Assembly: GCF_013122565.1 (NCBI RefSeq)
Contig: NZ_CP053258.1
Length of the DNA stretch: 64,000 bases
Reading direction: 5' to 3' (one strand)
Source of the DNA: Escherichia coli
GTDB lineage: Bacteria; Pseudomonadota; Gammaproteobacteria; Enterobacterales; Enterobacteriaceae
The notes beneath the pieces are model-generated. The model was not told the origin of the DNA. It saw nothing but the letters and a program-made list of their open reading frames with translations, and made no database searches. The translations under genes were made by a program, and so were the position numbers. This document shows positions 11,330-31,659 of the stretch, piece after piece; the first letter of the stretch is position 1; every line of letters starts with the position of its first letter.

Positions 11330-12316
11330 TCACTTATTAAAATGCCCCCAACGGAAATACATGTCACATGCCATCATAAAATCGTTATGCCAGAGGAACC
11401 GACAATGGAAAAAATAGTAAATTAAGCACGGTACATAGCAGAGTAAAAAATAGGCTTCAAACCAAATCCGCCATTCCACAAGCGTTGCCAATACCGACAC
11501 CAGCGTAATCCACATCACTTCAATAACCAGCAATATGAATAACCGAAGCCAAAGCGGCTTGGCAAAAAAGGTCGACAACGCATTTTCACTGGAGAAAAAC
11601 AGATCGATTTCCTGCAAAAAAAGCCTGCCCAGAAAAGCGTACCGCTTGGAGAAGCGCAGAAAAAACAGATTAATCGCCAACACTACGCCACAAAGAATGA
11701 GCAATGCAATTATCGATTTAAACGTTAACCACTGCCCCTCTGTCACAAAAGAGTTACTGTTACGCAACGGGCTGATAGTAAGCAGGTTAACAACCGTTGA
11801 GATACACACCGAAAGCAGCACATAGCGAGTCAGACTTTTATATTTTACTTTTTTCGCTACTGAAATAGCGACCTGCTTGACATAACTGGTGCGGATCATC
11901 CGAAACAACAGAAAGATGACCAACGGCCCAAGTAACGAAATCAGGAACAGCGCATATAACGAGGGTAGAAGCTGGTATAGCCCCCAACTCATTGCACTCA
12001 ACATGATTAACGACAGAAATCCTGCCACCAGAGGTTGTGTAAGAAATAATTCTATTTTGTGGTTCTGCTTTTTCTTAAACCACGAAAAATCGATATTCTT
12101 CGTGACGCATTTATAAGCCCAGTACGCCTTGAGATCAAAAATAAAATTATACAGCACCAGGACCAGAATCCCACTAACTACACCAATATCCTCTGATGGA
12201 AAAGTAAACCCTGCATTTTTCCAATAAAAGCCTATCAGAATAAGTCCAATAGCATAAATGTATATCAGATTTCGTTTATCCTGAAAGCGAATAAAAGTTA
12301 AATAATCAGGAATCAT
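11330..12316 (-). CDS. ycdU: Polytopic inner-membrane protein, probably YcdU.
   Basis: A 328-aa, highly hydrophobic product. Its length and its position between the serX side and the dgcT side match K-12 ycdU as remembered. The start overlaps the upstream stop (ATGA). Confidence 0.6.
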
Positions 12317-13257
12317 TTGAATACCTTCGCATCACTAAATGCTTTACGACAATGCATAACTCGTTGCTGATCCACGCCAGCAAAATCATTTAACATATTC
12401 CCCAAATAGGGCTTATTACTTATTTCAAGGAAAGCTACCGGGGTTGGCATATTCAGAAATGTATCGAGAGATTCAGTCCATTTCACCGTATGAGTTAAGT
12501 GTAATGAGAGATTTTCTTTGATAATTGACGGAGCGACCTCGCTTTTTGCTGTTACGTTCATCAGAACCTGATGCTCTGGCGAAGCGATATCCAGTCCGGC
12601 AAGATAATCGCGCATTGCCTGAACGCCGTCTTCCATCAAACGCGTGTGCCAGGCACCGCTCACACCGAGTTTAACCGGTTCGTACCCAGCGGCCATCAGC
12701 AGCGTGGCAAATTCATTCAACGCAGTCTGCGTTCCCCCAATAACCTGCTGGCGCGGCGTGTTATCACAGCTAATATCCAGCGCAATGCCTGATTCCGTAA
12801 TCATCGTCTGCAGTTGTTCGCGGTTGATGCCTTTAACCGCCAGCATTGCGCCTTTATTTCTCTGGCTTTCGTCATGCATCAGGCTGGCTCTGAAGTGAAT
12901 CATGCCAAATAGCGTCTCAAGAGAAATAGCTCCAGCGGCGTAGAGCGCACTGTATTCACCAACGCTGTGTCCGCAGGAGCCCACAACCGTTAAATTCTCA
13001 AGACGCTCGCGGCACAGGGTATAGAGCGTTACATTAATTGCGGTCACCGCCAGTTGTTGTACCGTCGTTTGAATAAGGCGATTCATCGGCCCTTTCTGAC
13101 ACAGGCGACGCAGGTTCAGTCCGGAAATATCGCTGGCACAATCCCAGATATGTTTTGTACTGGCGTTGAGATCCCAAAGATCGCTGCCCATACCAATAAC
13201 CGGATTACCCTGACCGGCAAAAAGCAGTACTGTCGGTTGTGAAGCATTATTCATCAT
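12313..13257 (-). CDS. FabD-like acyltransferase (malonyl-CoA:ACP transacylase family).
   Basis: Motifs LLFAGQGNP and [14 protein letters not shown] (GHSxG nucleophile), 314 aa. Confidence 0.85.
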
Positions 13258-30800: not shown

Positions 30801-31659
30801 CGTTACTGTTTAACAGGTTACCTTTGGAATCGATGCTGACACCATTAACCCCCCCAGCAATAACGCCGAGGTTGCGAACCCCCACACCTTTCTCGGTGCT
30901 GACCAGACTGATTTTGTTCGCATACATTCCGCCCAGTTTGGCAACATCTACGCTGTAACCGTTACGGGACCCCGTGGCGGATACGCTACCGGTCACCTGG
31001 CCTGCGGCATTAACATAGTTATTGCCAGCAACAACGTTCAGCTCATCGGCAGACACTTTGCCGTTAACTACCACGTTACGGGACAGAATTTCTGTCGGGC
31101 TGGCGTTATCCAGTTTACCGAGCGTAATGGTACCGCCGTTCACGGAGTAACCGGCCAGCTTGTCATCCTGGATATCCGGCGTCCCGGTGGTTAAGGTAAG
31201 TTTACCTGTATTGATTGAACCGCCACCGTTTACAGTAATACCATTCGGGTTGGCAATAATCAGATCCGCTTTATCCCCTGCAACTTCCATCATCCCATTA
31301 ATGGTTGAAGGATTTTTGGAAGTAACCTCATTCAGGATCACCTTCGCCGACCCGGAGGTCAGATTACTGTTTCCCTGAATATTTCCGGCAAGTGAAGTAC
31401 TGGATTCATTAGCGCTGTTATTGAAAACGACACCATTTTTATCAACGTTTAGGTTATCCCAGATATTATGAGATAAACCGCTACCGTTAGGTTTGTTGAT
31501 GTCAACGACTGGCACACCATTGGCGTTATATACCGTTCCATTTTTTATGACTAATCCCGCCGCTTGAGAAGCTACAGGAAAAGACAACATCATAAGTATA
31601 GCAATAGGGGTTAATGCTTTACCCACCGTTGCTTCCTTACTTAAATTTATCATCGCCAC
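27847..31659 (-). CDS. TpsA exoprotein: filamentous-hemagglutinin-like adhesin, 1270 aa.
   Basis: The N-terminal TPS domain has VFNNSANES and IIANPNGITVNGGG motifs, followed by Asn/Gly-rich beta-helix repeats. It may correspond to the OtpA/OtpB system described in O157:H7 (recalled, not verified). Confidence 0.9.
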   Translation of the reverse strand: MAMINLSKEATVGKALTPIAILMMLSFPVASQAAGLVIKNGTVYNANGVPVVDINKPNGSGLSHNIWDNLNVDKNGVVFNNSANESSTSLAGNIQGNSNLTSGSAKVILNEVTSKNPSTINGMMEVAGDKADLIIANPNGITVNGGGSINTGKLTLTTGTPDIQDDKLAGYSVNGGTITLGKLDNASPTEILSRNVVVNGKVSADELNVVAGNNYVNAAGQVTGSVSATGSRNGYSVDVAKLGGMYANKISLVSTEKGVGVRNLGVIAGGVNGVSIDSKGNLLNSNAQIQSASTINLTTNGTLDNTTGTVTSVGTISLNTNKNTIVNTRAGNISTMGDIYVNSGTIDNTNGKLAAAGMLAVDTNNATLINSGKGSSVGIEAGLVALKTGTLNNSNGQIRGGYVGLESGALNNNSGDIQTTGDIAIISNGNVDNNKGLIRSSTGHIVIGAAGSVNNGSTKTADTGSSDSLGIIADTGVEIGANNINNNGGQIASNGNVSLSSYSTIDDYAGKILSNSKVIIKGSSLRNDTGGISGKQGIEVAVGGSLTNNIGVISSEEGDISLLANSVDNHGGFMMGQNITMESMSGVNNNTALIVASKKLKINARGSIENRDGNNFGNAYGQYFGMPQQTGGMVGKEGIELSGQNIYNNNSRIIAEDGPLTLQAQNTFDNTRALVISGADASIQVGGTYYNNYATTWSAGNLDIDATTLQNSSSGTMIDNNATGFIASDKNLSLEVVNSLTNYGWISGKGDVDVTVKNGNLYNRNTIAAEKGLDIAALNGIENWKDISAGGDLTMNTNRHVTNNSNSNMVGQNIVINAVNDINNRGNIVSDVDLNVTTKGNLYNYLYMVGYGDVALTANSVANNNATIEATGDLIIDSKGNVGNNRGKLHALNGVLSVKGSNLNNDYGEIRGYDDVTLALTGNYDSFKGSLTSETGDVTLTANIVDNAYGLIAGENVSVDAKSTIYNNTALIAANKKLVINAGGNLENRDGNNFLRYNGEVFGITDNVGGIVGKEGVTLSAQNVYNNNSSIIAENGPLNLLSRGTLDNTRALLSSGADAIIRAAGMFYNNYATTYSAGNLDVYAASLSNASDGRLEDNTATGVIASDKNLDLNVDNSVTNYGWISGKGDVHFNVLKGTLYNRNAIAADNALTINALNGVENFKDIVAGTALTIDTQKYVTNNSNSNMLGQTIAINAVNDINNRGNIVGDYSLGVKTTGNIYNYLNMLSYGVAGVSANKVTNSGKDAVLGGFYGLALEANETDNTGTIVGM
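27943..29988 (-). repeat. Tandem internal duplication in tpsA with a period of 378 codons (1134 nt).
   Basis: Residues 558-861 align without gaps to residues 936-1239 (for example NTALIVASKKLKINARGSIENRDGNNF versus NTALIAANKKLVINAGGNLENRDGNNF). Plus-strand shadow ORFs ending at 28300 and 29434 are also 1134 nt apart. Confidence 0.9.

Follow-up and report, generated by a model that had tools for sequence, protein, structure and literature searches.

A 17-gene block of Escherichia coli O-island 47 combines a two-partner secretion pair with a putative envelope-lipid pathway and exporter

Gene content and layout of the tpsA–ycdU block

The window analysed here, a 64,000-nucleotide (nt) stretch of Escherichia coli DNA (contig NZ_CP053258.1), contains 17 consecutive minus-strand open reading frames (ORFs) that run from tpsA (31659) to ycdU (11330) and place a two-partner secretion (TPS) pair at the head of genes for lipid- or polyketide-type biosynthesis and for export. 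All 17 are intact, and their number and extent, which an earlier note on the same DNA had given, are confirmed by the ORF listing and by RefSeq, which annotates coding sequences for all of them in the 99.9%-identical chromosome of E. coli strain PapRG-04-4. The components that the note had named also stand, namely the TPS pair, a 4'-phosphopantetheinyl transferase, an acyl carrier protein (ACP), a ketosynthase (KS), a beta-ketoacyl-ACP reductase (KR), a dehydratase (DH), an acyltransferase, a Lol/MacB-like ATP-binding cassette (ABC) transporter with a LolA-like protein and a putative outer-membrane protein, and YcdU, but its list passed over the gene at 22929–24089, whose product is not a KS and is assigned by Pfam to the GcvT family.

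Junctions were recomputed with RefSeq starts; the longest-ORF starts of the KR, KS2, ABC ATPase and FabD-like genes lie upstream of these. From tpsA onwards they measure 88 nt (tpsA–tpsB), 15 (tpsB–acpS), 13 (acpS–KR, RefSeq start), 3 (KR–DH), 21 (DH–ACP), 35 (ACP–GcvT-like), 73 (GcvT-like to the KS–chain-length factor fusion, KS-CLF), 4 (KS-CLF to the ketosynthase-like KS2), −4 (KS2 to the 317-amino-acid (aa) protein h317), 10 (h317–ABC ATPase), −17 (ATPase to the 218-aa protein h218), 0 (h218–permease, TAAATG), 8 (permease–LolA-like), −4 (LolA-like to the putative outer-membrane protein, OMP), 13 (OMP–FabD-like) and −4 (FabD-like–ycdU), so that 14 of 16 do not exceed 35 nt and five overlap or abut. 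All the values quoted earlier (15 nt for tpsB–acpS, 3 nt for KR–DH, the 4-nt overlaps and the TAAATG abutment) proved right. A terminator scan of the minus strand returned no match in any of the 16 spacers, and the only strong minus-strand terminator lies 3' of ycdU, inside the end of an IS200 copy; a consensus scan gave 17 promoter-like sites, fewer than the 26.9 seen in shuffles. The longest spacer within the lipid block, that between the GcvT-like and KS-CLF genes (22856–22928, 73 nt), spans 59–161 nt in 12 other loci checked (among L002–L062), where a GC-rich hairpin is often present but neither a U-tract nor conservation is consistent; a second regulatory break may lie here.

Relatives were gathered by a genome scan with a KS-CLF profile, which yielded 79 loci, and these were surveyed by tblastn and hidden Markov models (HMMs). 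Many enterobacterial genera keep the whole 17-gene order, as do loci labelled Neisseria and Acinetobacter, and the cluster also lies on plasmids of 322 and 549 kb.

The block is the main body of O-island 47

The tpsA–ycdU block is the main body of O-island 47 (OI-47) of the enterohaemorrhagic E. coli (EHEC) lineage (O157:H7/O145:H28). Its 20.3 kb align to O157:H7 and O145:H28 chromosomes at 98.3–98.5% identity, over 100% of the length for O157:H7, and identity spans 98.3–99.9% when other E. coli are included; gene order is likewise near-identical to that of O157:H7, whose strain 4276 has intact copies of all 17 genes. The block is found at a coverage of at least 80% in 379 of 5,426 complete E. 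coli genomes. K-12 MG1655 aligns by blastn to window positions 52644–44398 (pgaD to dgcT) and 12656–11144 (ymdE' and ycdU) and lacks the 31.7 kb between them (12657–44397, no strand), in place of which its annotation shows IS3D. The position, between dgcT/pga and ycdU, is that of O-island 47 in EDL933, and the size of the stretch missing between dgcT and ycdU matches that published for the island (z1528–z1556, 31,727 bp; PMC8565820).

The FabD-like gene contains the island boundary, with the K-12 match ending at window position 12656: its final ~340 nt are what K-12 has as the pseudogene ymdE, and its overlap with ycdU is 4 nt. Because the boundary cuts the FabD-like gene and ymdE is its remnant, the K-12 state looks like an IS3-associated deletion derivative, and on sequence grounds ymdE'–ycdU looks like the stump of the operon left by a 31.7-kb deletion; for the same reason ycdU, which is counted as backbone, would belong functionally to the block. 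The ymdE–ycdU pair has been noted among uncharacterised core genes of mastitis E. coli (PMC4951805).

Published work on OI-47 deals with GrvA and VmpA only, leaving the tpsA–ycdU block with no assigned function. Our literature search found neither a product assignment nor any publication that treats the lipid genes or a characterised homologous cluster, in keeping with the earlier statement that the block matches no characterised pathway.

Biosynthetic enzymes

All genes of the block are on the minus strand, and their coordinates are given below on that understanding. The biosynthetic set begins with an AcpS-type 4'-phosphopantetheinyl transferase (25755–26123; Pfam ACPS; NCBIfam TIGR00516, 79.6 against a cut-off of 59.8), which is kept in nearly all cassettes and appears to be dedicated to the cluster ACP. 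The FabG-like KR (24980–25741; Pfam adh_short_C2/KR) exceeds the cut-off of an NCBIfam FabG subfamily (227.5 against 222) and is 36% identical to E. coli FabG. The FabZ/FabA-like 3-hydroxyacyl-ACP DH (24428–24976) has an inserted helical segment and is matched by Pfam FabA over residues 19–82 only, the part that FabZ models also match; its translation carries GHFPEDPIMPGV (His), then Glu, the two residues that we take to be catalytic as in FabZ. The dedicated ACP (24125–24406; 93 aa; Pfam PP-binding) has a DSV serine motif, is 27% identical to AcpP and is encoded directly upstream of the GcvT-like gene in every mapped locus. Near the other end of the block lies a FabD-like malonyl-CoA:ACP transacylase (12313–13254; Pfam Acyl_transf_1), in which Q11, S92, R117 and H201 are conserved and which is therefore regarded as malonyl-specific.

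The 852-aa protein encoded at 20297–22855 has two ketoacyl-synt and Ketoacyl-synt_C matches and 810 homologues. Aligned to FabF, its N-terminal domain is FabF-like with Cys/His/His/Lys at the active-site positions, at which the C-terminal domain has Glu/Thr/Phe/Asn; it is therefore a KS-CLF fusion with one active site. The adjacent KS2 (19069–20292), an atypical ketosynthase-like protein by Pfam and by alignment to FabF, has Ser in enterics and Cys in Bermanella at the nucleophile position and retains the first His, the second being replaced by Tyr. The gene for h317 (18119–19072) overlaps that of KS2 by an ATGA start/stop. Searches with h317 gave no Pfam, NCBIfam or PDB sequence match, nothing below E = 0.1 in a PDB profile search and no significant hhalign alignment to KS-CLF (probability 0.4%). 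Its AlphaFold2 (AF2) model (pLDDT 82.5) retrieves FabH, MxnB, PqsBC and OleA in Foldseek at E ~1e-10 and TM 0.5–0.57, and h317 is accordingly predicted to have a thiolase fold of the KAS III/PqsBC/OleA-like kind. Since natural KS2–h317 fusions exist in two distant relatives (P0389 and P0411), the two proteins most likely form a second KS-type pair, with h317 probably the partner subunit of KS2.

The GcvT-like protein (22929–24089; 386 aa; Pfam GCV_T PF01571 and GCV_T_C PF08669) is a member of the folate-binding aminomethyltransferase family that carries a conserved, family-specific extra C-terminal tail (LVNPxEHSYVD) and occurs in all cassettes except L080, a 35%-identity outlier. It has the GcvT fold, and its DxSH motif and an Asp aligned with D98 of E. 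coli GcvT, residues presumably catalytic as in T-protein structures, are invariant in 12 sequences. Its scores against the NCBIfam GcvT equivalogs stay well below their cut-offs (136 against 300 and 99 against 236 bits), and its genomic neighbours are the ACP and KS-CLF genes, not gcvH or gcvP.

Pfam and NCBIfam scans of the 17 proteins found no HlyC-like, LPLAT, MBOAT or Lnt-like protein. A short-chain dehydrogenase/reductase (SDR) encoded outside the block (39822–40604, minus strand) was considered as an enoyl reductase (ER) and rejected: it is KduD-like, only 21–25% identical to the FabL-like reductase of relatives, and not part of the lipid pathway.

Exporter and envelope proteins

Downstream of h317 lie an ABC transporter ATPase (17401–18108; Pfam ABC_tran PF00005, E 1e-35) and a MacB/LolCE-type (type VII) ABC permease with a periplasmic core domain (15450–16760; Pfam FtsX PF02687 and MacB_PCD PF12704), so that the FtsX transmembrane domain, MacB periplasmic core and separate or fused ATPase of MacB-type transporters are all present, the ATPase being separate here. 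Between their genes is that of h218 (16761–17417), a helical protein whose N-terminus is a signal peptide and which may act with the exporter. The window's h218 has no Pfam match and nothing below E = 0.1 in a PDB profile search; the P. mirabilis orthologue has a weak TPR_19 match below cut-off, and the family is present in 62 of the 79 loci. A LolA-like periplasmic carrier with a signal peptide follows (14653–15441; Pfam LolA_like PF17131, E 3e-36), and directly after it comes a 462-aa secreted protein (13268–14656) with a signal peptide and a Gly- and aromatic-rich C-terminus, which we take as a putative outer-membrane barrel. The 462-aa protein has no Pfam, NCBIfam or PDB match and nothing below E = 0.1 in a PDB profile search, and a Pfam scan of all 14 members of its family found no known family, so that the OMP label stays putative. 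Its gene directly follows the LolA-like gene in 13 of 13 tabulated loci where it was found, and neither occurs alone in any locus.

The last gene, ycdU (11330–12316), encodes a polytopic inner-membrane protein and is a core member of the cassette, found in 71 of the 79 loci after profile iteration and always directly downstream of the FabD-like gene. The AF2 model of YcdU is all-helical and confident (pLDDT 86.9) and matches no solved fold; a PDB profile search gave nothing below E = 0.1. YcdU is a candidate for a membrane hand-off or release step.

This set resembles LolCDE–LolA and MacB in joining an FtsX/MacB_PCD permease and an ABC ATPase to a LolA-fold periplasmic protein. It differs from LolCDE–LolA in having a single permease gene, a LolA_like (PF17131) protein instead of canonical LolA, an extra periplasmic helical protein and an unclassified putative OMP, and its cargo is presumably a lipid, not a lipoprotein. 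Scores against the Lol permease models are far below their cut-offs (lolCE 91.5 against 362, LolE 68.6 against 439 and LolC 32.5 against 473).

The TPS pair and a conserved hairpin behind tpsA

TpsA (27847–31659; 1270 aa) has the signal peptide and N-terminal TPS domain of type Vb secretion substrates (Pfam TPS PF05860, E 3e-41; NCBIfam adhes_NPXG; TIGR01901, 77 against a cut-off of 29), an NPNGI motif in its translation, and haemagglutinin repeats (Pfam Fil_haemagg). The cognate Omp85-type transporter TpsB, with two POTRA domains and a ShlB barrel (26139–27758; Pfam ShlB, E 4e-69, POTRA_2 and POTRA_3), is encoded 88 nt away, and the gene pair predicts TpsB-dependent secretion of TpsA. The pair thus shares with FHA/FhaC, ShlA/ShlB and HMW1 a TPS domain with NPNGI, a haemagglutinin-repeat beta-helix and a ShlB-type TpsB with POTRA; it differs in that TpsA is short and has no effector domain, in that the pair heads a lipid operon, and in the probable attenuator between tpsA and tpsB described below. 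TpsA orthologues occur in 30 loci at 44–68% identity, with tblastn matches that mostly end near query residue 860. By eye, the translation shows a tandem internal duplication of ~350 aa (residues ~590–930 and ~940–1270), which self-BLAST of TpsA did not list; relatives' matches that end near residue 860 are consistent with one copy of the duplicated segment, and nearly full-length matches are seen in several Enterobacter loci and in Mixta mediterraneensis (L024).

RNA folding places an intrinsic-terminator-like hairpin followed by a U-rich tract in the tpsA–tpsB spacer (27764–27837, minus strand; 15-bp stem at 27777–27837). This spacer measures 49–89 nt and has a GC-rich stem between A- and U-tracts in 19 of 19 loci (the window and 18 others); RNAalifold gives a 10-pair consensus stem with compensatory changes at nine pairs. 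The position of the hairpin, directly after tpsA in all 19 loci, argues for attenuation between tpsA and the other 16 genes; it probably acts as an attenuator that fixes the amount of TpsA relative to the downstream products. The spacer is too short for a promoter. The view of the block as a single operon, put forward earlier on the strength of its tight junctions, is therefore sound as to the junctions but too simple in view of this hairpin. As for internal terminators that would separate the modules, one such hairpin does exist, but the break falls within the TPS pair and not between the TPS and lipid modules.

Relatives of the cassette and the persistence of the TPS linkage

Ten genes make up a core that spans Enterobacterales to marine gammaproteobacteria: those for the FabD-like protein, YcdU, AcpS, KR, DH, ACP, the GcvT-like protein, KS-CLF, KS2 and h317. 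The h317 family is present in 77 of the 79 loci and is rare (56 clusters at 50% identity in a set of 1.84 billion representatives). The E. coli-type version has all 17 genes, with KS-CLF 71–86% identical, and occurs in ~15 named genera, among them Neisseria sp. and Acinetobacter sp. as labels of a single locus each. The Proteus/Providencia/Morganella version has, immediately before acpS, a gene for a TpsA-like protein (838 aa, TPS domain), and TpsB, LolA-like and OMP genes are missing. In the version of Serratia, Cedecea, Erwinia, Paraburkholderia and Pseudomonas the exporter is present and the cassette is not flanked by a TPS pair; in one Erwinia locus a partial TPS-domain ORF follows shortly after the ycdU-like gene, and the Cedecea locus that was examined encodes, in addition, a DUF6134 protein and a FabL-like ER. 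Marine gammaproteobacteria, Leptospirales and Desulfatitalea have the core only, to which the Bermanella locus examined adds a FabL-like reductase, a second KS-CLF and a 4HBT thioesterase. Among the loci examined, the FabL-like reductase is confined to relatives with no TPS genes and is found neither in the window nor in P. mirabilis (L040). A complete 17-gene cluster with KS-CLF 72% identical (L030) is deposited as Vagococcus sp. WN89Y, a Firmicute, and is probably a contaminant contig or a mislabelled assembly.

The earlier note had asked whether the TPS and lipid modules are adjacent only in this lineage, and the answer is that they are not: all 32 close relatives that could be evaluated, from ~15 named genera, have tpsB directly in front of the lipid genes, at a gap to acpS of 14–30 nt in the 20 loci measured, and 30 of the 32 have tpsA. 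The two tpsB-only loci are Kosakonia pseudosacchari (L017) and Kosakonia quasisacchari (L031), in which tpsB heads the lipid genes (positions 1–6700). Given tpsB with no tpsA in Kosakonia and the reverse in the Proteus clade, TpsB may have a role beyond TpsA secretion, or the partners may be encoded elsewhere. In a neighbour-joining tree of KS-CLF (drawn with no support values; the 'Ecoli' leaf is an artefact and was disregarded) the two TpsA-bearing groups are sisters, so TpsA was probably gained once and kept. From its absence in the Serratia, Erwinia, Paraburkholderia, Pseudomonas and marine versions, the TPS pair appears to be an add-on in one branch of the cassette.

An alternative interpretation is that two independent systems travel together here, an ordinary TPS adhesin pair and an orphan lipid or polyketide cluster with no functional link between them. 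The absence of TPS genes from all tier-2 and tier-3 cassettes, the loss of TpsA in two Kosakonia loci and of TpsB in Proteus, Providencia and Morganella, and the conserved terminator-like hairpin that follows tpsA would all fit this explanation, as would the aryl-polyene (APE) cluster of strain CFT073, an unrelated lipid cluster that also adjoins a decayed TPS pair; such neighbours can arise in island mosaics. We nonetheless consider this explanation, the main rival, unlikely, because the 14–30 nt between tpsB and acpS in the 20 close relatives measured leave no room for a promoter, because the adjacency persists while TpsA identity drops to 44%, or 30% in the sister clade, and because distant hosts and plasmids have received the 17 genes together as a block. 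In CFT073 the APE cluster (L083, 28728–45001) lies beside a pseudogenised ShlB/haemagglutinin pair, possibly by coincidence.

Comparison with known lipid and polyketide systems

The nearest functional likeness is to APE clusters (CFT073 c1186–c1204; Xenorhabdus ape), which likewise combine discrete type-II KS/CLF, KR, DH and ACP with no ER, have a LolA-like protein and an inner-membrane exporter, implying outer-membrane localisation, and have spread laterally in Gram-negatives. The window has the same KS, CLF, KR, DH and ACP logic with no ER, though with KS and CLF fused, and the flexirubin KR model is among the KR matches (183.9 bits against a cut-off of 340), so that a divergent APE-type pigment cluster had to be considered. 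We regard this as essentially excluded, because similarity to the CFT073 APE proteins is only generic (KS 31–33%, KR 32.5% and ACP 33% identity) and because the APE acyl-CoA synthetase, LPLAT, GT2, thioesterase, methyltransferase, MMPL, DUF3261 and LolA-family proteins of CFT073 have no BLAST counterpart in the cluster, the LolA-like protein here showing no BLAST similarity to the APE LolA-family protein. Nor do the 17 proteins contain an ammonia-lyase, chorismate-enzyme or AMP-ligase domain that could supply or activate an aryl starter. In place of the APE set of MMPL, LolA-family, DUF3261 and tailoring proteins, the cluster has an ABC transporter of the MacB/LolCE type, and its fused KS-CLF, GcvT-like protein, KS2/h317, YcdU and TPS pair set it further apart, the GcvT-like protein, YcdU and h317 being foreign to APE clusters. 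By analogy, the cluster may work like the APE type, with a type-II product sent to the outer membrane, as a system outside the APE family.

Cispentacin AmcF/AmcG and ishigamide-type polyketide synthases (PKSs) share the pairing of a KS with a dead CLF-like partner acting on a discrete ACP, and the AmcF, AmcB and AmcE models are among the matches, all below their cut-offs (AmcF 246 against 325); the present cluster differs from them in lacking adenylating and cyclising enzymes and in its envelope export genes. It also stands apart from the housekeeping type-II fatty-acid synthase (FAS), with no ER among the 17 genes, 24–36% identity to the K-12 enzymes and equivalog cut-offs unreached, and from polyunsaturated fatty acid (PUFA) synthases (PfaA–E), since its proteins are mostly single-domain and the PfaA model scores 63–81 bits against a cut-off of 1010. 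Domain scans, family thresholds and the CFT073 comparison thus bear out the earlier view that the pathway is not aryl polyene, PUFA or lipid A.

A proposed envelope-lipid pathway

We propose, with a probability of roughly 55%, that the 17 genes are a laterally mobile unit for a type-II PKS/FAS-like envelope-lipid system with MacB/Lol-like export, co-expressed with the TPS pair. AcpS would convert the private ACP to its holo form, the malonyl-specific FabD-like transacylase would load it, and the KS-CLF fusion, through its single active ketosynthase site, would elongate the chain, which the FabG-like KR and FabZ-like DH would process in each round. As the E. coli-type cluster has no ER, the chain is expected to be unsaturated or hydroxylated (polyene-like) unless host FabI intervenes. 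KS2 (Ser/Cys, His, Tyr) and h317 probably prime the chain or transfer or condense it, and the GcvT-like folate enzyme probably adds or removes a one-carbon or aminomethyl unit. The cluster has neither a thioesterase nor a known acyltransferase, and among its proteins YcdU is the strongest candidate for passing the product on to the membrane, from where the ABC transporter, periplasmic h218, the LolA-like carrier and the putative OMP would move it to the outer membrane. TpsA and TpsB would be transcribed from the same upstream region as the lipid genes, with the hairpin after tpsA leaving TpsA in excess and read-through feeding TpsB and the 15 genes behind it. What is shown are the genes present, their catalytic residues, folds and synteny, the hairpin and the deletion in K-12; from these we infer the product chemistry, the roles of KS2/h317, the GcvT-like protein and YcdU, the direction of export and co-transcription of the 17 genes; the product chemistry, the roles of these proteins, the location of the 462-aa protein and co-transcription are the weakest links of the proposal.

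Several observations weigh against it. The conserved hairpin after tpsA could mean separate transcription units, and the modules can be uncoupled, since two Kosakonia loci keep TpsB with no TpsA and the Proteus clade keeps TpsA with no TpsB, LolA-like protein or OMP; more distant cassettes have no TPS genes at all. The absence of an ER, a thioesterase and a recognisable acyltransferase from the E. coli-type cluster leaves chain release with no explanation, the role given to YcdU is a guess from position because the protein resembles no solved fold, and the 462-aa protein, for which an outer-membrane location is presumed, has no family or fold assignment. Colonies of O157:H7 are not known to carry pigment, which speaks against an abundant polyene in laboratory conditions.

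A closer connection between the two modules, in which the TPS pair functions within the lipid system and TpsA is acylated by, carries or displays the product, with YcdU or KS2/h317 as the transferring component and release through TpsB, seems to us improbable. The related suggestion that the pathway lipidates or loads TpsA, an ACP-built acyl or polyketide chain being placed on the secreted beta-helix by analogy with HlyC acylation of RTX toxins, is more doubtful still. It gains something from a TpsA or TpsB gene being fixed at the head of the lipid genes across the clade, from the missing thioesterase, which makes transfer to an acceptor necessary, and from TpsA being short and having no effector domain of its own. 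It is at odds with the absence of any HlyC-like, LPLAT, MBOAT or Lnt-like protein from the cluster and with the fact that most cassettes have YcdU and the exporter and no TPS gene, and a dedicated route through the ABC transporter, LolA-like protein and OMP suggests that a free lipid is exported. The lipid-modified adhesin envisaged in the earlier note therefore keeps the TPS linkage in close relatives in its favour but gains no direct support, there being no recognisable protein acyltransferase in the cluster. We return below to the envelope-lipid system with a co-expressed TPS pair.

Implications for O-island 47

The locus itself is an already known island and not a new locus. OI-47 has been known as an island since 2001, in which year Perna et al. 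reportedly described it as a putative adhesin plus polyketide/fatty-acid system. New here are the ten-gene core with its rare marker proteins, the placing of YcdU and ymdE in an operon, the KS-CLF plus KS2/h317 architecture, the GcvT-like member, the deep TPS linkage with its probable attenuator, and a recurrent GrvA-like neighbour. OI-47 belongs to the large islands that characterise the O157:H7/O55:H7/O145:H28 lineage, and about two thirds of it (20 of 31.7 kb) have no known function, an orphan pathway in a major pathogen. This stretch can now be described as a defined, putative orphan pathway for an envelope lipid, recognisable by a rare combination of markers (KS-CLF fusion, GcvT-like protein, KS2/h317 and YcdU), and the K-12 orphan genes ycdU and ymdE gain a first functional context.

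If the product reaches the surface, it could affect EHEC adhesion, biofilm formation, stress tolerance or immune recognition. If it is linked to TpsA, the result would be a new type of surface structure, a lipid-bearing two-partner-secreted fibre of a kind not described so far; and if the GcvT-like protein acts on a carrier-tethered group, as T protein does on the lipoyl arm of H protein, this would be new PKS/FAS chemistry.

Regulatory region and flanking genes

Between tpsA and a divergent fimbrial operon lies an AT-rich non-coding region of 1.39 kb (31660–33051, no strand; GC 0.35), which contains no ORF of at least 70 aa apart from one of 72 aa and is presumed to be the promoter and regulatory region. 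About 260 nt before the tpsA start this region has a very stable hairpin (31923–31973, minus strand; 18+3 bp, z-score −5.3), which is followed ~10 nt later by a T-run and matches no Rfam family; an Rfam scan of 10500–33200 for a riboswitch or leader returned only the IS200 small RNA (sRNA) STnc490.

Candidate cognate regulators, judged by the neighbours of the operon in relatives, are encoded by grvA, which specifies a ToxR-like winged-helix regulator, and the gene of its 163-aa partner (41292–42600, plus strand). Homologues of both, 26–28% identical over their full length, lie divergently beside the operon in two Buttiauxella loci (L010 and L078, 228–1067 in both) and in the two tpsB-only Kosakonia loci (L017, 3059–4388; L031, 3064–4387). 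GrvA, a virulence regulator, may thus be the native regulator of the operon in origin.

The fimbrial operon, of the chaperone-usher type (33052–39676, plus strand), is divergent to tpsA, and its major subunit is 59–60% identical to the product of a cluster-neighbour gene in Kosakonia sacchari (L003) and in an Enterobacter sp. metagenome-assembled genome (L012). In the 45-kb stretch of CFT073 examined there is neither OI-47 nor a ycdU gene between dgcT and the integrase. Just downstream of ycdU in the window lies a copy of IS200C (tnpA; 10542–11133, minus strand) with the 5' sRNA STnc490 (Rfam, 140.8 bits) and an upstream stem-loop, and past it come a P4-type integrase and island genes (YfjI, inovirus Gp2-like and IS1). 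This further island is partly held in common with the serX island of CFT073, the integrase and a helix-turn-helix regulator being identical in the two.

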